DNA of 64,000 nt. It comes from an uncultured Desulfobacter sp. (GTDB lineage Bacteria > Desulfobacterota > Desulfobacteria > Desulfobacterales > Desulfobacteraceae). The stretch's first letter is position 1. Every line of letters begins with the position of its first letter. The stretch lies in NCBI GenBank assembly GCA_963665095.1, contig OY762069.1, forward strand, positions 3,904,001 to 3,968,000. Reading direction: 5' to 3'. Of this stretch, positions 2,486 to 13,656 are shown one piece after another. The notes beneath the pieces were generated by a model. The model was not told where the DNA came from. It saw nothing but the letters and a program-made list of their open reading frames with translations, and did no database searches. The position numbers and the translations under genes were made by a program.

Positions 2486-2486
2486 C

Positions 2487-2612
2487 ACCAAACGCTGGAG
2501 CGGGACCGGGCTTACTGCGTGGATTTTTGAAAGTTTGTGGTTCAAGAAAATGTAAACTTTTATCTGAGGATACGGCTTCAAAACGCCCGGCCCCTCAGCT
2601 TCCCCGTTATAA
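2487..2612 (+). other. attC site 1 (R'' interrupted by the IIC introns)
   Basis: AC-caaac-GCTGGAG (L'') ... CCCGGCCC-CTCAGC (L')-ttcccc-GTTATAA (R', 2606-2612); same architecture as attC2. Confidence 0.8.
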
Positions 2613-2630: not shown

Positions 2631-3362
2631 TTGCATCAAGATAATAAAATTGCATTGCTGATTGATTGTGACAATGTTAGTCACAAATCTATTGAAGGTG
2701 TTATCGATGAACTTTCCAAGTATGGGAAAGTCAATATAAGGCATGCCTATGGAAATTGGAAAAACGATAGTATGAAAGGTTGGGAAGAGAAGTTGCACCC
2801 ACATGCCATCAAACCAATTCAGCAATTTGCATATACTAAGGGTAAAAATGCAACTGATGCTGCTATGATAATTGATGCAATGGATATTTTATATACTCAA
2901 AACCTTGATGCTTTTGCATTAATGACGAGTGATAGCGATTTTACACCGCTGGTTATGCGCATTTTATCTAATGGCATTACAGTTTATGGTTTTGGAGAGA
3001 AAAAAACTCCACAGCCTTTCGTCAAAGCCTGTTCTCAATTTATATACACAGAAAATTTAGAGCAAATAGAAGGGGAAGATGAAAAGCCTGATAATAATGT
3101 AAATGCAAAAAAGACAAGGAACGAACTGAGACAAGATGCAGCATTGGTAAAATTATTAAGAACAGCTGTAGAGCATTTTGCAGATGAGAGTGGATGGTCT
3201 CATTTAGGTCTTGTTGGGCAATATATTAGCAACAAAACCTCATTTTCACCCGTAAATTACGGGTATAAAAAATTAGGCGACTTAATAAGAGTTAGTGATC
3301 TTTTTCATATAGAAATGAGAGATGACAACTCTACTATGTACATAAAAGATATAAGAAAATAA
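2631..3362 (+). CDS. NYN (LabA/DUF88 PIN-like) domain protein with C-terminal OST-HTH/LOTUS domain; gene cassette
   Basis: IALLIDCDN, GKNATD, SDSDFTPL motifs; C-terminal GW..L..VG...F.P.NYGYKKL.DLI; AT-rich; bounded by GTTATAA and TTATAAC. Confidence 0.9.
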   Translation: MHQDNKIALLIDCDNVSHKSIEGVIDELSKYGKVNIRHAYGNWKNDSMKGWEEKLHPHAIKPIQQFAYTKGKNATDAAMIIDAMDILYTQNLDAFALMTSDSDFTPLVMRILSNGITVYGFGEKKTPQPFVKACSQFIYTENLEQIEGEDEKPDNNVNAKKTRNELRQDAALVKLLRTAVEHFADESGWSHLGLVGQYISNKTSFSPVNYGYKKLGDLIRVSDLFHIEMRDDNSTMYIKDIRK

Positions 3363-3364
3363 TT

Positions 3365-3493
3365 TTATAACAAAGCCGCTGAACCCGACCGGGCAACCTG
3401 CGCGGCGTTTTGAGGCTGCCTGGTTAATGAAATTTTAAACTTTTACCGGAGCTATTGTGGTTTAAACGCCCGGCCGGTTAGCTCCCCGTTATG
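3365..3493 (+). other. attC site 2
   Basis: R'' TTATAAC 3365-3371 (exact complement of the cassette-start GTTATAA), L'' GCTGAAC, arms CCGACCGGG/CCCGGCCGG, L' GTTAGC, R' GTTATG 3488-3493. Confidence 0.9.
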
Positions 3494-4197
3494 GTGCGAC
3501 ACGAGGTCGCATTATTGGCTGTTTGGCGGACCAGTCGGTCCTGACCAAACCCGGCTCCTGCCGGTACCCTAGGTGGCATGCGGTTACCGGTGCATCCGGC
3601 AACGGTGTGAAGCCCAACCGACAAAGTACCGAATTCCGCAGCTGCGGAAGGGGTGGAAGCCGTGAGGCGGATACCCTCCTGGAAGCCTCAATCCGGGTAA
3701 GGGCAAGGGTTTGGATGATATGGTCAAATTAATTGAATGTTCCGTAAGTACCGTCAGGGAGAGCAAGCTAAAAAGGCTGGTAAGCTTGGACCAAAAGGTG
3801 AGCGGTCAGGTTGCAGGTTTCCTAACTGCCTGCACGGAGATGTTGTGCCGCCGGTGCTTAAGGGCAGACCTAAGTCATCCATAAATTGGCAATAATGCGG
3901 AACGTGGAAACCCCGTATCTTCGCCGGGAGTATTCGGCAGGTGAAACTGTAAGGCACACTGATGGAGGTGCGGGCGTAAGATGCAGGAAAAAGCGAATGC
4001 CGTCTTGTAATGAGATGGATACGGATTGAGGCGTATATCCCCAACATTACCCGGCCCGAAAGGGAGCTGACGTCCGGCGGGTGTGACTACAGACACACCC
4101 GGGCAGGTATTTCGTAAGCGTTTAAAGGACCCCATCTACAACTCATTAAAATGACATGAGAAGATGAGCCAACTTTTAATTAACGGAGGCCCATCAT

Positions 4198-4530
4198 ATG
4201 TCAGAAACAGAGAACAAAAACCAAAAGCTAATCCAGTTCTGGAAATACCATATTAAACAATGGTCTGAATCGAGTATGTCCCAAAATGCATACTGCAGGC
4301 AAAATGATTTAAGACCCAATCAATTTACATACTGGAAAATGAAATTCAAAAGCCAGGCACTTGCCCCAGAATTCGTTCAGGTCCCTTCAACGCAGATCAG
4401 CCAGGCACTAAGTCTTTCTGAACAAAAAGGCTTAACGTTGAATACAGATAACGGATTTCAGATCGAAATACCGGATGGCTTTTCCCAAACAACCCTGGCC
4501 CAGGTGCTTCAAGTATTGAGGCGGTGCTGA
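4198..4530 (+). CDS. tnpA: IS66 accessory protein TnpA
   Basis: W..HI.QW..S.MSQ.AYCR...L....F.YW pattern; first ORF of the IS66. Confidence 0.85.
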   Translation: MSETENKNQKLIQFWKYHIKQWSESSMSQNAYCRQNDLRPNQFTYWKMKFKSQALAPEFVQVPSTQISQALSLSEQKGLTLNTDNGFQIEIPDGFSQTTLAQVLQVLRRC

Positions 4531-4883
4531 TGTTTTCTCCCACCCAGAATTTAAAAATTCATATCGCACTTGGAAACACTGATATGCGCAAGTCCATTGA
4601 TGGGCTATCCATACTTGTGAGCGAAAAGTTAAATTTGGATCCATTTTCAGGACACATGTTTGTATTCTGTAATCGGAAACGGAATATATTGAAAATCCTG
4701 TATTGGGATCGCAATGGATTCTGTCTTTGGCATAAGCGCTTGGAAAGGGATTATTTTCAATGGCCCAAGTCAAAAGAGGAAATTTTGACCATCGGAGCAA
4801 AAGAGCTTTCCTGGCTGATGGACGGACTTTCTATTCGTCAGGAAAAAGCACATAAATCATTAAAATATTCGGCTGTTTTTTGA
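4524..4883 (+). CDS. tnpB: IS66 accessory protein TnpB
   Basis: TDMRKSIDGL, FVFCNRKR..LKILYWD.NGF.LW.KRLE motifs. Confidence 0.95.
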   Translation: MLMFSPTQNLKIHIALGNTDMRKSIDGLSILVSEKLNLDPFSGHMFVFCNRKRNILKILYWDRNGFCLWHKRLERDYFQWPKSKEEILTIGAKELSWLMDGLSIRQEKAHKSLKYSAVF

Positions 4884-4928
4884 TCATAAAAACTGGTGAA
4901 AACCGCGTGGTTATGGTATATACAACGC

Positions 4929-6521
4929 ATGAATAAAGAGGCTTTTGCAGACATAAATGACGTTGAGAAATTAAAAGAAATGATGGCTTGTTTTGTCAAT
5001 GATTTTTCAGATAGAGAGCACAATTATAAAGCCGAAATCAAAATTCTCAACGAACAGATTAAAAGCCTTCGGGACCAGCTTTTTGGTAAAAAGACAGAAA
5101 AAATCCATAAGAATGACGGTCAACTATCCCTTTTTGATACTTTTGAGCCGGATACGCCCATATTGGACGAACCCGAAGAAATCAGCGTGCCTGCCCATAA
5201 TCGAAAGAAGCCAGGGCGTAGACCTTTGCCTGAAAACCTTCCACGGGTTGAAGTGATCCACGATCTGACCGAGGAAGAAAAAATATGTGCCTGTGGCTGC
5301 ATGAAATCCCGTTGCGGCAAAGAAGAATCTGAACAGCTTGAAATTATTCCGGCACAAGTGAGAGTAATCAGAAACATTCGTTATAAATACGCTTGCAAAA
5401 ACTGCGAAGGTGTTGACGATGATGGGCCAACAGTGTCCATTGCCAGAATGCCGGAACAAATGATCCCCAAGAGCATCGCAACCCCAGGGCTTTTGGCCCA
5501 TATCCTGACAGCCAAATTTGCAGATGCTTTACCCTTCTACCGGCAGGAAAAACAGTTTAACCGAATTGGAGTAGACATCCACAGGTCCAATATGTGCAAT
5601 TGGGCTATGAAAGTGGCCCAGGCCTGTGAGATCCTGCTGGAATATATGAAGGATGAAATCCTTAAAGGCCCAGTGATAAATATTGACGAAACAACAGTCC
5701 AGGTTCTCAAAGAACCGAAACGGTCAAAATGCTATATGTGGGTGTTCAAAGGAGGGACACCGGATAATCCCATTATTCTGTTCCAGTATCACCCAACTCG
5801 ATCCGGGGATGTTGCCCGGAATTTTTTGAACGGTTATCAAGGTGTTGTTCAGACGGATGGCTATGCTGGCTATGACTTTCTTGATCATATTGTGGAAATC
5901 ATTCATGTTGCGTGCTGGGCACACGCACGTCGAAAGTTCATGGCTGTGGTCAAAGCTGCCGGAAATAAAACTGGCAACCCAACGGGAACCGCCGGCAAAG
6001 CCCTGAAGTACATCAGCAAATTATACAAAATAGAAAGAGAGGCCAAAGAACTTGGTTTGTCTGCTGATGGACTTTACTGGAAAAGGCAGGAGCTATCCTT
6101 GCCTATCCTTGATGAATTTAAAAAATGGTTGGATGCTCAAGTTGAAAAGGTACCGCCCAAAAGTCTTCTTGGTAAAGCCATTAACTACACCCTTAATCAA
6201 TGGCATAGATTGGTTCTGTATACGGCAAGTGGTCTGGTAATGCCGGATAATAATGTAGTCGAAAATGCCATAAGACCCTTTGTGGTGGGCAGAAAAAATT
6301 GGTTGTTTTCATGTACACCTGCGGGCGCCGATGCCAGTGCCTGCATTTACAGCCTGATCGAAACAGCCAAGGCCAATGGGCTTGAACCTTACTGGTACCT
6401 CAAATTTCTCTTTGAAAATTTACCGGAAGCCATGACGGAAGATGAATTTAAAGCCTTGATGCCACAAAACGTGGATAAACATTTGCTGGAATCCAACTAT
6501 ACAACACCCCGTCAGGCTTAA
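4929..6521 (+). CDS. tnpC: IS66 DDE transposase TnpC (alternative start 4896)
   Basis: LPFYRQ, IDET, QTDGYAGY, CWAHARRKF, DNNVVENAIRP..VGRKNWLF, SLIETAKANG. Confidence 0.97.
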   Translation: MNKEAFADINDVEKLKEMMACFVNDFSDREHNYKAEIKILNEQIKSLRDQLFGKKTEKIHKNDGQLSLFDTFEPDTPILDEPEEISVPAHNRKKPGRRPLPENLPRVEVIHDLTEEEKICACGCMKSRCGKEESEQLEIIPAQVRVIRNIRYKYACKNCEGVDDDGPTVSIARMPEQMIPKSIATPGLLAHILTAKFADALPFYRQEKQFNRIGVDIHRSNMCNWAMKVAQACEILLEYMKDEILKGPVINIDETTVQVLKEPKRSKCYMWVFKGGTPDNPIILFQYHPTRSGDVARNFLNGYQGVVQTDGYAGYDFLDHIVEIIHVACWAHARRKFMAVVKAAGNKTGNPTGTAGKALKYISKLYKIEREAKELGLSADGLYWKRQELSLPILDEFKKWLDAQVEKVPPKSLLGKAINYTLNQWHRLVLYTASGLVMPDNNVVENAIRPFVVGRKNWLFSCTPAGADASACIYSLIETAKANGLEPYWYLKFLFENLPEAMTEDEFKALMPQNVDKHLLESNYTTPRQA

Positions 6522-6781
6522 AAAGGTGCGGTTGATACACCGCTTACGGTATTTCTTTGCAAGAGAGTCTGGAGAATCTTTGAGGATGGTGTAGATTCCC
6601 GAAATAACCTGAACAAAAACCCGCCAAATTTTTCATATTAAATTGACAAAGTTCCATTTTTCTCAAATTATCCTGTACAGGTTCTGATCAAAGCATTCTG
6701 ACAAAAATGAAAAGGGCGAAAAGCTTTGCAGAGCCTCGCCCTTAAGACCGGGATTTATAAAATCCCAAAACAACCATAAAA

Positions 6782-7228
6782 ATGATAATAAAGGTCAAAG
6801 CTGATATCAAGCAAATTTTCAAGCAGGGCAAAAATTTTACATGGCCAAAACCGTCACGATGTCCACATTGCAACGACTCCAGGCTGTGGGGACACGGCTT
6901 TGTACTCTCCTTTTTTGATGGATTTGATCAAGGGGTGTATTTGAAGCGATATCGCTGCCCCTATTGCAAAACCGTATTCAAATTGAAGCCATATGGTTTT
7001 TTCAAGAGGTTCCAGGCCAGTATCTGGCAAATCCTTACCAGCATTATGAGTCGTCTATACACTGACCGGTATCTGCCGGAACTCTCCTGGAACCGACAGC
7101 ATTTTTGGTTTACTGCATTGAAACGAAATATAGCGGCCTACCTGTCCAACAGTTGGGACAAAGGTGTGGTTGCTGGTTTTATCAAGCTAATCGGTATGGG
7201 TAAAATCCCGGTTACCAGTTCAATTTAA
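6782..7228 (+). CDS. Transposon-associated Zn-ribbon protein (DUF6431-like)
   Basis: CPHC...LWGHG...RYRCPYC motifs; first ORF in the element. Confidence 0.75.
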   Translation: MIIKVKADIKQIFKQGKNFTWPKPSRCPHCNDSRLWGHGFVLSFFDGFDQGVYLKRYRCPYCKTVFKLKPYGFFKRFQASIWQILTSIMSRLYTDRYLPELSWNRQHFWFTALKRNIAAYLSNSWDKGVVAGFIKLIGMGKIPVTSSI

Positions 7229-7331
7229 CCATGGGGCTGGATCAGGTTTAAACCACCCTACCGAAGGCTGTGATTTACCGAAGGATCATACTGTCATACA
7301 AGCCCTTAGAACCAAATTTTAAGGAGGAAGT

Positions 7332-8588
7332 ATGACAGAAAATCAGAAAAATGAGGTTGCCGTGTTCAGGTTTGGGGTCATTTGTGAATTTGTGACCGGA
7401 ACAAATTTTGATTACGGTGAAAAAGAACGAATTTTACAGCAGAAGTGCGCCCGCAAATGGTCCATCCCGTATTCTGGAAGGACCAGGCTTTCCAGAAGTA
7501 CGATTCTGGGATGGGTCCGGCAGTATAACGGTCGAATAGAGTCTCTTTACCCCAAAGACCGTTCAGACCAGGGAAAATCAAGGGTATTCGATGACGAGAC
7601 TGCATCTCAACTAATCAAACTCCGGTTAGACCAGCCTGATGCGACAGTCGATACATTGATCTGTTCACTTCAAAAAACTACATGCCAGACATACAGTCCA
7701 TCCAGTGTATACCGTTTTTTACGCGGCCGGGGGCTAATGAACACGGCCCGGCCAGAGGATAGAAGAAAGTTTGAAGCCCCGCACCCCAATGATATGTGGC
7801 AAAGCGACGTCATGCACGGCCCTACAGTCCTGGTTCAGGATAAGCAAAGAAAAACGTACCTGATTGCCATTATGGACGATCATTCCAGGCTGGTTACGGC
7901 TGCAGGTTTTTATTTATCTGAGAATCTGAAGACCTATCTTATGGTGCTGGAGCAGGCTTTTTTGAGCCGTGGGCTTCCCCGCAAGCTGTATGTAGATAAC
8001 GGTCCTGCGTTCAGATCCCATCATTTAAAATATGTAGCAGCGTCTCTGTCCATCGCTTTAATCCATGCAAGGCCATATAAGCCCCAGGGGAAAGGTAAAA
8101 TCGAGCGCTGGTTCAGAACGGTTCGGCTTCAGTTTCTGCAAAGATTTACAGGTAAGACCCTGGATGATCTGAATGGGGCATTTGAGAAGTGGCTTCATAA
8201 TGAGTACCATCAGCGTAAACACAGCTCCACAGGCGAATCACCGTTTAAAAGATTTACCTCGGCCATGGAGTGCATCCGTACCGCCCCACCGGATCTGAAA
8301 GACCACTTCCGCAAAACCGCCCGGCGCAAGGTGGCAAAGGACCGAACCATAACCCTTGACGGCAACATGTTTGAGGCCCCGGTTGCGCTGATCGGCAGAC
8401 ATGTGGATGTAAAGTACCATGAGGACACCCCTTTGCAGGCTGAAGTTATCTATAAAGCAAAGTCTTATGGCTTGTTAACCCCGGTGGACCTTGCTGTGAA
8501 CTGCCGGGTCAAGCGGCACCGCTGGAACGAAAATGATATCCGGATTATGCCTGAACCCTCAAATTACAAGGGAGGGCAACTGTTATGA
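7332..8588 (+). CDS. DDE integrase/transposase (rve core plus Mu-transposase C-terminal domain)
   Basis: WQSD, DDHSR, LYVDNG, GKGKIERWFRT, Y..R.HSST. Confidence 0.93.
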   Translation: MTENQKNEVAVFRFGVICEFVTGTNFDYGEKERILQQKCARKWSIPYSGRTRLSRSTILGWVRQYNGRIESLYPKDRSDQGKSRVFDDETASQLIKLRLDQPDATVDTLICSLQKTTCQTYSPSSVYRFLRGRGLMNTARPEDRRKFEAPHPNDMWQSDVMHGPTVLVQDKQRKTYLIAIMDDHSRLVTAAGFYLSENLKTYLMVLEQAFLSRGLPRKLYVDNGPAFRSHHLKYVAASLSIALIHARPYKPQGKGKIERWFRTVRLQFLQRFTGKTLDDLNGAFEKWLHNEYHQRKHSSTGESPFKRFTSAMECIRTAPPDLKDHFRKTARRKVAKDRTITLDGNMFEAPVALIGRHVDVKYHEDTPLQAEVIYKAKSYGLLTPVDLAVNCRVKRHRWNENDIRIMPEPSNYKGGQLL

Positions 8589-9394
8589 GTGAAATGTATC
8601 GCACCTTTTTTGGCTTATCCAGGGAGGCCTTCCCGGCGCAGATAGAAATTAATGATATCCTGGTTACCCCGGAGGTCTCGGGCGTTAAAAATCGGATTGA
8701 TTATTCCTTAAGACTTGGCTGCAGTGCGGTTATCACAGGGGATGTGGGCAGCGGAAAGTCCACCGCCTTAAGGTATGCCGCCTCATCCCTACACCCTTCG
8801 GAATACAAAGTCTTTTATGTTACGGCCTCAAGCGGTTCCATCATGGAACTTTACCGGCAGATTGTTGAAGAACTGGGCATAGAGCGGACATCGACGTCCC
8901 GCGCTGTTATGATCTCCATTATTAAAAATGAAATACGTGAATTCGTCCTGGGAAAAAAGATCAAAACCGTTTTGATTATAGATGAGGCATCTCTGCTTCG
9001 CATGGAAGTCTTTGCCGAACTTCACACCCTGGTTCAATTTGAAAAAGACGCCATGCCCTGGCTGCCTGTGATCCTTGCAGGTCAGCCGACATTGATAGAT
9101 AAGCTTCAGTACCGGACGTCAATCCCGTTTGCATCCAGGATTGTGGCTAAAAGCCATCTGGATGGTCTGGATGTGGCTGGAATGAAAACTTACCTGATCC
9201 ATCATTTAAAACTATGCGGTGTTGACACCAACTTTTTTTCTGACCAGGCGGTGACTGCGATTCATCAAGGCTCCGGCGGCCTTTTACGAAAGGCGAATAA
9301 TCTTGCCAGAGGCTCATTGATTGCTGCTGCGGCAGAAAAATCAATGACGGTATCTGCAGAGCATGTCCGCATTGCTTCATCGGAGATTTTTTAA
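8585..9394 (+). CDS. ExeA/TnsC-like AAA+ ATPase of the transposon
   Basis: Walker A GDVGSGKST, Walker B LIIDEA, ILAGQP; ATGA overlap with the transposase. Confidence 0.9.
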   Translation: MSEMYRTFFGLSREAFPAQIEINDILVTPEVSGVKNRIDYSLRLGCSAVITGDVGSGKSTALRYAASSLHPSEYKVFYVTASSGSIMELYRQIVEELGIERTSTSRAVMISIIKNEIREFVLGKKIKTVLIIDEASLLRMEVFAELHTLVQFEKDAMPWLPVILAGQPTLIDKLQYRTSIPFASRIVAKSHLDGLDVAGMKTYLIHHLKLCGVDTNFFSDQAVTAIHQGSGGLLRKANNLARGSLIAAAAEKSMTVSAEHVRIASSEIF

Positions 9395-10043
9395 GAAAAA
9401 ACAGCCATAGAGCAGAATATTACGATTTCGGTGAAACGGAGCCGGGCTCTGCTGAGGAGCAACCTGGTAAGGGATAGCCGGAAGCAGGCAGCATTGAATA
9501 ATGCGCCAGGGGAAGTGGGGATTACCTGCTTCCCCTTTCTGCTTTATTCAAGCTGTTCTGCCTATGCCTTAAAAACCTACTGAGAAGGAGCGCAGCGACT
9601 TCTGTAGCTGTCTTAAATAATATGGAAAAGATTTAATCTGTTCAAAATAATTAGAAAATTTAAGTCAGGATAAAATGCGACTCAACAATGGGAAAGCAAA
9701 TGACGGCAATAGCTGGTGCGCCATCAGCAGCTTTACGCTGTTAAAAGACTGTAGATGCGTATCGCAAAGGTTGTTAAAGTAGCACACGGCATATGCGCCA
9801 GAGGTTCTTTCAAAAGGATGCATTTTCTTTTGACTCGGAAAAAGAACAGTGCTTTCCGAGAGAATGCTCAAGGACATATGCTATGAAATAACTGTAAATT
9901 TCATTATTGCTAAAACAACCGGGCGGCCCGCAAGGCTTAGTCTTAGAAATGCTTGAGCCGTATGATGGGAAACTGTCACGTACGGTTCTGAGGGGGCCTG
10001 GGGTAGATAACTACCCCAGGCTACCCGATTTTCAAAAAAATCG

Positions 10044-10080
10044 TTGCACGGATCCAAAAGTAATACTACAATGGTATTAC
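10044..10080 (+). promoter_or_regulatory. Sigma70 promoter and palindromic operator of the AbrB/VapC cassette
   Basis: TTGCAC(10044)-17 nt-TACAAT(10067); inverted repeat GTAATAC-N7-GTATTAC straddles the -10 box. Confidence 0.75.
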
Positions 10081-10100
10081 ATTATCAAAGGAGATTTATT

Positions 10101-10325
10101 ATGCGTGTAACCACAAAAGGCCAAGTCACTATCCCCAAGAATGTAAGGGAAATATTAGGTATTGCTCCAGAGACAGACGTTGATTTTCAAGAAGATAACG
10201 GAAGATTTTATCTGGTCAAAGTATCAAAAAACAAACCGACCTCTAAATTTTCGAAGTTAAGGGGGATTGCTACAGCTAAAATGTCTACAGACGAAATCAT
10301 GAATATGACAAGAAAAATAAAATGA
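10101..10325 (+). CDS. AbrB/MazE/SpoVT-family antitoxin
   Basis: MRVTTKGQVTIPK.VRE.LGI; AAGGAG RBS; overlaps the PIN toxin. Confidence 0.92.
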   Translation: MRVTTKGQVTIPKNVREILGIAPETDVDFQEDNGRFYLVKVSKNKPTSKFSKLRGIATAKMSTDEIMNMTRKIK

Positions 10326-10726
10326 ACGGAATTTTCATTGATTCGTGTGTGTTGCTTGATCTGTTTACGAATGATTCTAAATGGGGAAACTGGTCTGAAG
10401 ACGTATTAAGTCAGTGTAGCCAGACGAATACATTATTCATTAATTCAATTGTGTATACCGAAATATCAATTGGTTTCAACCGTATTGAAGAAGTCGAGGA
10501 AGCTGTTGAACAAGTGGGTGTAAAAGTCCTGGAAATTCCACGCGAAGCTTTGTTTTTGGCTGGAAAGACATTCCTTGAGTATCGAAGAAATAAGGGCACT
10601 AAAAGTTCAACCCTTCCGGATTTCTTCATTGGTGCTCACGCTACAGTATCTTCATTTGACTTAGTCACAAGGGACATTGCAAAATATAGAACGTATTTCC
10701 CAAACATAAAACTTATTTGCCCATGA
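10322..10726 (+). CDS. vapC: PIN-domain toxin VapC
   Basis: IFIDSCVLLD, VYTE, LPDFFIGAHA, LVTRD. Confidence 0.92.
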   Translation: MNGIFIDSCVLLDLFTNDSKWGNWSEDVLSQCSQTNTLFINSIVYTEISIGFNRIEEVEEAVEQVGVKVLEIPREALFLAGKTFLEYRRNKGTKSSTLPDFFIGAHATVSSFDLVTRDIAKYRTYFPNIKLICP

Positions 10727-10814
10727 TTTGCTTCAAGACGTGGTCGCAAACAAATTTTGAACTTTATACCAAGCGAATAGGGATAGGACTCCCCATCACT
10801 GAGGAGCCCTCCCA

Positions 10815-11733
10815 GGTGAGTAGCCCAAAGGAACTTCCCCTTCAGGCTCTCTCAGAACCGGTCGTGAATCTCTCGACTCATCCGGCTCCTATCGTTCAGC
10901 CGTTTTTTTTTCAGGACACGCCAATGTACAAAAAGGTTCGGCTGTCGTTCAGCAATCTGTGTCAACCATCTTGTGGCCTTTTGTTGACGTCCCCTGAGTT
11001 TCTTATATTTACAGGTTGCCCAACGTACTAACCGCCAATTTATATGATGGAGAATCCCAGACATCTCAGAAGGATTGTACCGCCCGTAATAATTAATCCA
11101 GCCTTGAATTATTGGATTACATTCTATAGCCAGATCCTCAAGCGTGTCCCCTGGCCGTAATTGCCAGTTCCAACTGCGTACTTTCTGTCTGATTGCCTTT
11201 GCAGCCTTGTTGCTTATCGCTGGTGTGAAGTTTTCAAAAAATTTTCCTCTGCGATTTCTTGATAATCTGGGCCGAAATGTATACCCTAGAAAATCAAACT
11301 TCATAACAGGATAATCTCCTTTTCGATCTTCATCCTTGCAATAAACTATTTTTGTCTTTTCAGGGTGCAGCTCCAACCCACATTCACCAAACCTTAACTC
11401 CAAGTCAGCTTTCAACTGTTTGGCTAATGGTTCAGTTCTGCAGTGGCAAACAGCATCATCGGCATATCGCTCAAAAGGCACATACGAATAGTTTCGCTGC
11501 ATCCAATGATCGAAAACATAATGCAAAAATAAATTTGCCAGCAAGGGACTAACCACTCCTCCTTGCGGAGTTCCTTTTTGCGGATAAACAAGTGATCCGT
11601 CCGGCATTGCGATTGGGGCCTTTAGCCACCGTTCAACATACAAAAGTACCCAGCGACAATCTGTGTGTTTTACTACAGCTCTCATCAAAAGTTCATGATT
11701 GATATTGTCAAAAAATCCTTTCTCATGGCACAC
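10815..11733 (-). mobile_element. Class D group II intron copy 2, both termini present, large internal deletion
   Basis: 5' GTGTGCCATGAGA joined directly to RT KGFFDN codons; DV GAGCCGGATGAGTCGAGAGATTCACGACCGGTTC; 3' end CTACTCACC; removal restores GGGTGGTG/TGGGAGGG exactly as in copy B. Confidence 0.9.
10852..11720 (-). pseudogene. ltrA: N-terminally truncated class D intron RT/maturase
   Basis: Begins at KGFFDN; retains PQGG, YADD and maturase NPIIQGWINYY; lacks RT0-2. Confidence 0.9.
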
Positions 11734-11786
11734 CACCACCCGGCATACGGATCACGTACCAAGGCGGTTCGGCTGATTTCGAAAAA

Positions 11787-12858
11787 TCAGTTCCCGGGCA
11801 GATACAATCCTTTCTTAACAAAATACATTTCAGGCATGGCAATGGCCACCCACTTGATTTTGCTCATGTGCCAATACTTTTTGCGTGCGTTGCCGCACAG
11901 CATGGCGTCCTGATGAGAAATACCAAGTTTTTCCAGGTTACGGACCCTGGTCCCAGGGTTTTTCCATTGTTTCCAAACAAGACTTCTCAGCCGTCGCAGT
12001 ATCCAGACCTTGAGTTCTTTCAGAAAATAGCGGGTTTCCGTGAGCCGGAAATATCCCCACCACCCTCGGAAATACTGGTTCAAGTCCTGAATCACTTGCC
12101 ACAGACTTTTACCCCGTTTACGGCAGGTTAATTCCCGGACCTTATCCTTGAACCGTTTCATACTCTTGGCATGAATCCGGATCTTGGACTGCCCACACAT
12201 TTGGAAATATGTGAATCCTAAGAATTTACCTATCCACGGTCTGCTTACAGCACTCTTATCCTGGTTTACCTTGAGCTTGAGTTTCACAGTCAGAAACCGG
12301 GTGATACTCTGCATAACCCGCTGGGCTGCTCTCAGGTATGGCCTTCAACCATATACCCCTTCCCCTGTATCACTGCATCGTGTGCGGATCTGCCGGGCCT
12401 GAATCCATAACTGAATTCAGAAAAAGAGGGGTCCCAGACCTGTTCAAGGACCTGGCTCAATTTATCATGACCATCGACACCTGGGATATGGCCTGCTGGA
12501 TAAACCGGTCCAGCACTGTTGGGATTCCAAGTAAACGGACACCGCCATCCGGTTTAGGGATTTCCTTCCTTTTAACCGGCAGCGGTTTGTACCTGCATTC
12601 CAGCAGGTCTTGTTTGATTTCAGGCCAGTGCTTTGCAAGGTAGCTGCCAAGCTGGCTGGTTTTCATGCCATCCACTCCTGGGGCACCCTTGTTTGCACAG
12701 ACATGCTTCCATGCCAGGATAATGTTGTTACGTTCAAGAATCATCTCCATTAAACGGGCATTGTTTCCCAGACGTTCGGCAATCTGTGACGCTGGAAACA
12801 GTTCCAACTGCTGTGGCGATCTGTTCACAAGTACACATCTCCTATTTGTCGTTATCAT
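11787..12858 (-). pseudogene. ltrA: Class C intron RT/maturase pseudogene
   Basis: N-term NKGAPGVDG, R.LGIPTVLDR; then FSEFSYGFRPGRSAHDA; the PQG/YADD region is absent; C-term FLGFT, LNQYFRGWWGYF. Confidence 0.9.
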
Positions 12859-13027
12859 TTACCCGGACCATTCGGCCCGGGCACCGTTCAGGCCTTCACC
12901 GGGGTGAGTCCTCCCTGGTTTGCAGGGCTCGTTTCCTCCGACTACTATGCCCTCTGCTGACTTCTCCCATGCGGCCAGGACCAGTTACCCGGCCCTCAGC
13001 TCCCCATTCGATTTTAAAAACAACCAT

Positions 13028-13612: not shown

Positions 13613-13625
13613 AACATGGAATCGA

Positions 13626-13656
13626 ATCGTGATAGGACTCCCCCATTACTGAGGAG
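13626..13656 (-). mobile_element. 31-nt relic (DVI only) of a fourth IIC-attC intron
   Basis: ATCGTGATAGGACTCCCCCATTACTGAGGAG matches the 3' end of copies B/C; sits after ATCGA, the expected R'' half for a cassette starting (G)TTCGAT. Confidence 0.8.

Follow-up and report, generated by a model that had tools for sequence, protein, structure and literature searches.

A IIB/CL1-type group II intron behind an integron attC site of Desulfobacter and its relatives at the attC sites of other cassette arrays

The intron and its flanking cassettes

The window analysed here is a 64,000-nucleotide stretch of the genome of an uncultured Desulfobacter sp. (contig OY762069.1, positions 3,904,001 to 3,968,000). 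It contains a cassette array without an adjacent integrase gene (CALIN); the sole intI gene above the cut-off in this genome lies 3 Mb away, at C1:910169-911113, beside another array. IntI adjoins the main array of this genome, and it also adjoins the array of genome G112. In the first site of interest, attC1 (2486..2612, top strand), the 5' end of an IIC-attC intron on the bottom strand, with its junction at C1:3906483, divides R''; R' (GTTATAA, 2606-2612) matches the R'' of the next cassette. That cassette encodes a 243-aa protein with NYN and OST-HTH domains (2631..3362, top strand) and its start, GTTATAA, agrees with its own R''. No close intron-free allele of the NYN/OST-HTH cassette was found, the best match reaching 82%.

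The cassette is closed by attC2 (3365..3493, top strand), which occupies the 129 bases before the intron and is kept intact by it. R'' (TTATAAC, 3365-3371) and R' (GTT, 3488-3490), like L'' (3378-3385) and L' (3476-3482), form inverted repeats with extrahelical bases and spacers of 5-6 nt. The L boxes pair 7/7 with an extrahelical base (read on the bottom strand, a C, a feature shared by most members of the family), and a second bulge is present. The rule score of attC2 is 14.5, a score of 13 being reached by 0.07% of 3000 genomic GTT sites. The bottom strand folds as a canonical rod whose folding energy is unremarkable (z -0.44), for which reason folding energy was dropped as a test of attC identity.

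The intron spans positions 3494-10029 of the top strand, as delimited by Rfam matches and by its junctions. Its 5' part (3494..4113; domains DI-DIII and the start of DIV, placed by Rfam and homologue comparison) begins with GTGCG and includes a match to the Rfam group II D1-D4-7 model (3550-3704, top strand, E 9e-15). An IS66-family element, of which the genome has four copies, follows in domain IV (4114..6547, top strand), bounded by an 8-bp target duplication, GGTATTTC, at 4106-4113 and 6548-6555. A 34-nt piece of the intron that ends in the start codon of a relic ORF (6556..6589, top strand) separates it from a second IS (6590..9687, top strand). The latter has TGT..ACA ends and a 4-bp duplication, ATGG, located at the start codon of the intron ORF; its three ORFs encode a 148-aa product without a Pfam match, an rve transposase and an AAA ATPase, and there are 14 near-identical copies in the genome. 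The relic ORF, of CL1 type, continues at 9692..9954 (top strand) as decayed N- and C-terminal stubs around a deletion, being short by ~1.35 kb compared with full-length relatives. The 3' part (9955..10029, top strand) comprises DV, with its AGC triad at 9956-9958, DVI, with a bulged A at 10023, and the 3' end CCCGAT; the Rfam DV-DVI match covers 9953-10029 (top strand, E 4e-11). With a 5' GUGYG, the DV triad, the bulged A and a 3' AY in place, the sequence identifies the element as a real group II intron.

Together the two IS occupy 5.5 kb, and subtraction of both leaves 992 nt by coordinates (620+34+338), to which an IS-free copy at C1:2927565 is ~96% identical. Contigs of run X3 span both intron junctions with no differences, and run X1 covers the 5' junction as well; a spliced exon joint was not found in the contig sets of four runs. 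In characterised introns, domain IVa is where the intron protein binds. Since both IS sit in this region, mobility of the window copy has probably been abolished. The first-pass annotation had proposed a homing intron at this position, a proposal that suits the lineage to which the copy belongs and does not suit the copy itself, a relic that has lost its ORF and carries both IS in domain IV.

The next cassette (10030..10776, top strand) encodes an AbrB/MazE antitoxin and a PIN toxin and retains its own upstream region. It ends in an R'' remnant, AGCGA, followed by the 3' end of a IIC intron; this intron interrupts the attC of the PIN-toxin cassette, whose 5' arm has been deleted. Because that attC is destroyed, the window intron cannot be excised with its cassette. 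The earlier expectation that the intron leaves the upstream attC intact and lands within the next cassette was borne out, and the further suggestion that it can travel with this cassette fails for the window copy.

Other intruders of the array were also recorded. Bottom-strand IIC-attC introns and their remnants lie at 1100-2486, 10777-13000 and 13620-13655, with a tandem pair ahead of attC1, and the copy after the PIN-toxin cassette holds a second group II intron (DV-DVI at 10815-10890) near its 3' end. At 12985-13012, a IIC remnant is joined to an attC 3' arm via a shared 11-nt motif (CCGGCCCTCAG), a fusion that removed the 5' part of the intron and the 5' arm of the attC; the R' at this point, ATTCGAT, matches the R'' of the following YefM-YoeB cassette. 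IS91-like elements end at the R'' position (CTTGAAC) of several attC sites (G000:C1:923155, 928333 and 3895284) and make up a third group of parasites of attC here.

Target choice and exon-binding sequences

All six copies of the intron in this genome are found at the R' position of an attC, one of them behind ATT instead of GTT. Homologous loci were gathered by protein or intron similarity and not by attC context, and their comparison is the basis of what is said below on target choice, on the identity and register of EBS1, on the register of EBS2, on the absence of an endonuclease (En), on the ORF-less subfamily and on exon exchange. The search yielded 127 distinct 5' junctions; domain I is complete in 107 of these, and 103 have enough exon for analysis. 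Named hosts are mostly Desulfobacterota, joined by Thiotrichaceae and Aminicenantes; beyond Desulfobacterota, the breadth of the lineage is documented by metagenome contigs and by three records with a named host. A comparison with 72,556 plasmids revealed no close member, the highest full-length identity being 54.5%, and so gives no indication of a role in clinical class 1 integrons.

GTT was found at positions -5, -6 or -7 in 90 of the 103 junctions, against a background of 4.7%; the GTT of L181, counted among the 90, is a coincidence. The other 13 junctions consist of six retargeted sisters, two insertions behind the 3' end of another intron, two variant cores and three unexplained cases. 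An attC rule score of at least 12 was obtained for 37 of 86 testable exons versus 0.8% of control GTT sites, and a score of at least 10 for 58 of the 86 versus 9-11% of controls. Some of the 28 exons scoring below 10 are visibly attC sites; others (such as L057, L059, L112 and L119) are not clearly so. A test of fold symmetry was set aside, as it missed obvious sites in spite of a count of 52/86 versus 13/150. The insertions of the homologues are overwhelmingly at attC sites, so that a check which could have overturned the attC-homing claim did not do so.

The proteins of both subclades into which the lineage falls contain the RVT_N, RVT_1 and GIIM domains and no HNH domain. The intact relative in this genome, at C1:928454, encodes 497 aa with a YADD motif and is 56% identical to the protein of the window subclade. 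The intron proteins are 51-55% identical to those of plasmid group II introns and ~31% identical to the IIC proteins of this genome; judged by eye, they share a motif with UHB.I2, which PMC7923331 calls CL1. This likeness and RVT_N make them putative CL1 proteins, the trees having been built from sequences without class labels. In a 52-row tree the window subclade and the larger subclade each received 100/100 support and met in a multifurcating fork with a non-attC pair (89/96). Within the larger subclade nest retargeted sisters. Seven metagenome introns are of this kind (L178, L179, L181, L185, L186, L189 and L192), and their placement inside the attC clade indicates a secondary loss of attC specificity.

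All positions given in the first-pass annotation proved correct: GTTATG at 3488-3493, the intron from GTGCG at 3494, the stem TGCAGGT (3812-3818)/GCCTGCA (3828-3834) displaying CCTAAC at 3821-3826, GGAGAGC at 3758-3764 and GCTCCCC at 3481-3487. The likeness of the L'-spacer region in attC1 was also confirmed, with GCTTCCCC at 2598-2605 just before the R' GTTATAA.

CCTAAC lies in the loop of the Id3 hairpin (3812..3834, top strand) and faces GTTATG (3488..3493, top strand), which occupies positions -6 to -1, GTT being the conserved part. In the predicted fold of domain I, six of the seven stem pairs have probabilities of 0.94-0.97 and the EBS1 bases are unpaired with a probability of 0.98. Compensatory changes support the stem across 99 distinct homologues: pair 3814/3832 is C-G in 80 and T-A in 10, and pair 3816/3830 is G-C in 78 and A-T in 17. 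A 5/6 match of one 6-mer has a chance probability of about 0.005; the weight of the argument comes from the homologues. In insertions two bases past GTT, EBS1 reads ..AACG in 28 of 28 cases; three bases past GTT, it reads ..AAC in 51 of 53 and ..GAC in the other two. EBS1 covaries with the exon across the lineage, with 32/52 matches at -1 (18.3 when shuffled) and 22/52 at -2 (14.1 when shuffled), although the rows are related and significance is therefore overstated; no covariation was seen inside the window subclade (n=20, p 0.26-0.38). In each of the seven sisters that lie outside attC, EBS1 is fully complementary (6/6) to the exon at its own insertion site, and two of them differ by a compensatory base. 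A 6-nt EBS1 in an Id3 loop that pairs with -6 to -1 is what is expected of a IIB intron, and the domain I fold, the stem covariation and the retargeted sisters all argue that the CCTAAC loop is the true EBS1 and not some other loop.

A candidate 7/7 alpha-alpha' pairing of the window copy (CCTGACC 3540-3546/GGTCAGG 3804-3810) was not relied upon, being just 43-80% paired across the 99 rows, and an all-against-all pair scan of domain I was buried in G-U noise.

EBS2 was located where the first-pass annotation had put it, in a register shifted by one: GGGAG (3757..3761, top strand) pairs with CTCCC at -12 to -8 (3482..3486, top strand), that is, with the last base of L' and four spacer bases. 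This register, in which the second base of the junction faces -8 and which is fixed by covariation and homologue pairing, yields, in the two groups other than the window subclade, 2.84 pairs versus 1.78 after shuffling in 32 rows and 2.54 versus 1.34 in 28 rows (p<0.001 in our rows, which include kin and near-copies, so that p values are overstated); other registers remain at the shuffle level in the same two groups. GGGAG pairs 5/5 with CTCCC in 15 of 19 window-subclade copies, so an EBS2-IBS2 pairing in register -8 to -12, another IIB trait, is present. The 6/7 pairing noticed earlier exists in the window copy; its register was rejected, as it does not covary (0.94 versus 1.01 in the 32 rows) and its seven bases need G3763, a position that is A in 25 and G in 2 of 27 subclade copies. 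A pyrimidine (C or T) occupies the first position of the 3' exon (+1) in 29 of 32 cases, compatible with a G as EBS3; no position covarying as EBS3-IBS3 was found among the homologues.

These results support, at the level of sequence comparison, the view that EBS pairing directs a non-IIC lineage to the top strand of the attC core, through insertion site, register and covariation alike. The main competing account, to which we give appreciably less credence without regarding it as negligible, is that a protein or RNA recognises the top-strand attC hairpin and that EBS pairing merely sets the position of the cut. It draws on the looseness of the pairing: EBS1 is often matched only 5/6 (24/52 and 16/28), and EBS2 averages about 2.5-2.8 of 5 pairs outside the window subclade, which looks like scant information for a genome-wide preference. 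Moreover, the targets, 45-130 nt long, all fold, IBS2 covers the spacer that is left unpaired in the hairpin, and Sonbol and Siam have speculated on a role of the hairpin (PMC7923331). On the other hand, the sisters nested in the clade left attC, as far as seen, by changes of EBS1 and EBS2 only, some GTT insertions have no detectable hairpin, and EBS2 covaries with its target.

Mismatched cassette starts and short intron copies

The R' of a cassette is expected to mirror its own R''. This was so in 15 of 18 intron-free cassettes versus 1 of 11 intron-bearing ones (Fisher p 2.6e-4), after the removal of 9/20 occupied and 6/24 free rows with no R'' within 1.6 kb or with an IS91-like end. If cassette identity is used as the criterion, another two occupied cassettes look concordant, which would bring the count to 3/13. 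The first base of the 3' exon, by comparison, matches R'' in 9 of the 11 intron-bearing cassettes (p 0.002). In the window, the R'' remnant AGCGA predicts a native start GTTCGC, and five intron-free alleles in relatives start exactly so. GTTATG, named as R' in the first-pass annotation, is therefore not the start of the following cassette, and the 5/6 match to EBS1, real as it is, is probably not the original target pairing, since GTTATG is foreign to that cassette.

IntI cuts at G/TT and so cannot part the three bases after GTT from their cassette; recombination between intron copies can. Copies are 96-97% identical over 0.6-1 kb and number up to 13 per genome. One orthologous copy differs between two genomes at 50 positions clustered around EBS1, the neighbouring copy having one difference, and reciprocal-looking combinations of exon and cassette occur. 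The two halves of the window copy would accordingly derive from insertions in different cassettes, joined by homologous recombination between near-identical copies. Such recombination would delete or swap cassettes without IntI and would also exchange EBS1.

Co-conversion could produce the same mismatch during mobility itself if cDNA of an unspliced precursor carried donor 5'-exon bases into the new site. The discordance rate is high (10 of 11 scored occupied cassettes), and a fourth base after GTT in 9 of 103 junctions, a G in eight of them (L003, L054, L094, L106, L109, L113 and L114 are among these junctions), hints at imprecise 5' junctions. These GTT+4 junctions may equally reflect slippage that satisfies the C-G pair of EBS1, or the addition of a G, and an extra G is likewise seen at two of this genome's IIC junctions. 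Co-conversion nevertheless seems to us improbable: the patchy exchange within orthologous copies demonstrates that recombination does happen, the 13 copies that a genome may hold offer ample homology for it, and the reciprocal-looking combinations also speak against it. Still harder to sustain is the idea that discordant junctions are assembly chimeras across repeated introns. Near-identity of the copies would favour such errors and no single contig spans the whole element, yet G112 and G098, which are independent genomes, have identical discordant combinations of 5' and 3' junctions. Finally, the suggestion that these are ordinary site-specific CL1 introns carried on cassettes or gathering in neutral arrays finds a foothold in the cassettes that carry the intron in several genomes, where spread is partly by cassette inheritance, and is refuted to the point of being barely conceivable by the constant offset from GTT at dozens of different cassettes and attC types, an offset predicted by the register of EBS1.

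Bacterial group II introns without an ORF are known that keep intact ribozyme domains, occur in several copies at different sites and are mobilised in trans. Copies of 900-1010 nt account for 14 of 42 intron 5' ends in 21 stretches, and ten of the 14 share the ORF deletion, in six genomes of three genera and ahead of different cassettes. Since the same ~1.35-kb deletion, with the ribozyme domains kept, recurs at different sites, the sequences place the window copy in an established ORF-less subfamily, which differs from the known ORF-less introns in that its targets are attC sites across three genera. Short copies would depend on protein supplied in trans by a full-length relative; an intact protein of the window subclade is absent from this genome, and full-length members of the subclade exist in relatives. 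A 1005-nt copy at C1:942207-943211 has a different deletion; what it keeps of a full-length member is a fragment covering RT3-5 and the 3' end.

Proposed mode of insertion and relation to known introns

We consider it highly probable that the window copy descends from an attC-specialised IIB/CL1 lineage which reads its target through EBS1 and EBS2, has given rise to an ORF-less subfamily and recombines between copies. On this reading, members of this endonuclease-less lineage insert into the top (cassette-sense) strand just beyond the G/TT crossover. The invariant AAC of EBS1 reads the GTT of R', its remaining bases face cassette-specific bases with one mismatch tolerated, and EBS2 reads the L'-R' spacer together with the end of L'. 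Insertion takes place two or three bases past GTT, or sometimes four, with a final G; the upstream attC therefore stays intact and the intron comes to lie in front of the gene, where the next cassette begins. Since attC remains usable and the intron lies in sense direction, cassettes could carry it and splicing could remove it from their transcripts.

By analogy with the RmInt1 paradigm, reverse splicing would occur into the single-stranded top strand at the replication fork, where a nascent strand would serve as primer. Of 30 sedentary integrons in a published survey (PMC5371416), 25 have their bottom strand on the leading template, so that the top strand would be exposed. The predicted lagging-strand template carries four of the six copies in this genome, three of them in one array, if GC skew and KOPS are taken to place the origin near 4.68 Mb, despite the location of dnaA at 1.34 Mb; the window copy does not belong to these four, and no local inversion was seen around it. 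As an observation on this chromosome, dnaA is close to the GC-skew maximum and the KOPS switch (about 1.07 Mb) and not to the skew minimum at 4.68 Mb, and one of four rRNA operons opposes the predicted replichore. RmInt1 resembles the lineage as an En-minus IIB intron with EBS-based homing and a fork-dependent insertion model (PMC8914252); it differs in being a class D intron with a single IS target, and with four of six copies a lagging-template bias is only putative here.

IIC-attC introns of the S.ma.I2 type, which use the bottom strand and the hairpin (PMC3001079, PMC8876359, PMC4424553), likewise target attC in integrons and CALINs, are En-minus and accumulate in arrays. They occur in the window array too, and both kinds of intron are present at 2 of 42 attC sites. 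As described in these sources, however, they encode a class C protein, lie antisense, insert at TTGT/T in R'', use the hairpin in place of IBS2 and part the gene from its attC, whereas the lineage studied here is inserted in sense orientation past R', uses EBS1 and EBS2 and leaves attC whole. Membership in the IIC-attC group was rejected on the low identity of the proteins, the presence of EBS2, the AGC triad and the top-strand position after R'. By these sequence traits it is a IIB/CL1-type lineage that works like an attC-homing element and yet does not belong to IIC-attC.

The sections of reviews that deal with attC targeting treat it as a specialty of class C (PMC4424553, PMC8876359). One IIB1/CL1 intron behind an attC, UHB.I2, is in print (Sonbol and Siam 2021, Mob DNA 12:8, PMC7923331); the first-pass annotation had reserved judgement on the novelty of IIB introns in cassette arrays, and such an intron is thus not new, while the lineage and its mechanism do not appear in the accessible text of that article. 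UHB.I2 has a IIB1 RNA and an En-minus CL1 protein and lies in cassette orientation directly behind attC. According to our own reading of the supplement, its Id3 loop has ..AACG, and the first two bases of the intron fall within the attC call, which is the GTT+2 register. In contrast, it is a single copy for which the authors saw no exon conservation, the article's accessible text proposing neither a lineage nor a pairing of EBS1 with GTT (PMC7923331), and its domain I sequence clearly differs from both subclades. CL1 and class E introns, non-IIC like those described here, are mentioned in the variable regions of Shewanella integrons, in a passage that gives no insertion site or mechanism (PMC9229058). 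In the openly accessible literature, to which our search extended and which leaves subscription papers aside, we found no account of the lineage, of GTT being read by an EBS or of intron-mediated exon exchange.

A widespread IIB lineage that recognises attC on the opposite strand amounts to a clear instance of convergence on a safe-harbour target. It suggests a route from a site-specific to a family-specific intron, in which the EBS1 bases facing GTT are fixed and the others relaxed. R'/R'' discordance could serve as a simple sequence signature of IntI-independent array rearrangement in genomes with several copies, and intact members may constitute a natural, reprogrammable tool for targeting attC.

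A distant CL-type intron bearing an HNH domain (570 aa) inserts into the top strand inside the GT/T of attC-like sites at four loci (L226:895, L229, L231 in G136 and L072:1255 in G008). It follows ..ACGT or ..GCGT, has GCGTTT or GCGCTT as EBS1 and would split R'. Its origin is likely separate from that of the En-minus lineage; its placement inside the attC group is not rejected (p-AU 0.114). A single origin of all attC-targeting CL1 introns was abandoned, as the value of 97 that joined the two subclades in a quick tree (with nine rows left out by name and others for want of a known exon) had no counterpart in the careful 52-row tree. The label "non" given to some rows means no more than that GTT is missing. 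We hold, tentatively and with a shade more doubt than conviction, a combined view in which CL1 introns reached attC by base pairing more than once, in the En-minus GTT+2/+3 clades and in the HNH-bearing GT/T lineage; in which intron copies and their 1-kb derivatives would act as portable homology for IntI-independent deletion and re-joining of cassettes; and in which gene conversion would refit the three variable EBS1 bases to cassette starts.

More distant CL-type introns were also noticed at L007 (G000:C1:115-118 kb), L024 and L025, where the 5' exon resembles the R'' and L'' of a short attC, as if insertion had taken place in the apical portion of such a site. The insertions at L007 and L024 may lie in the 5' arm or the loop of short attC sites.
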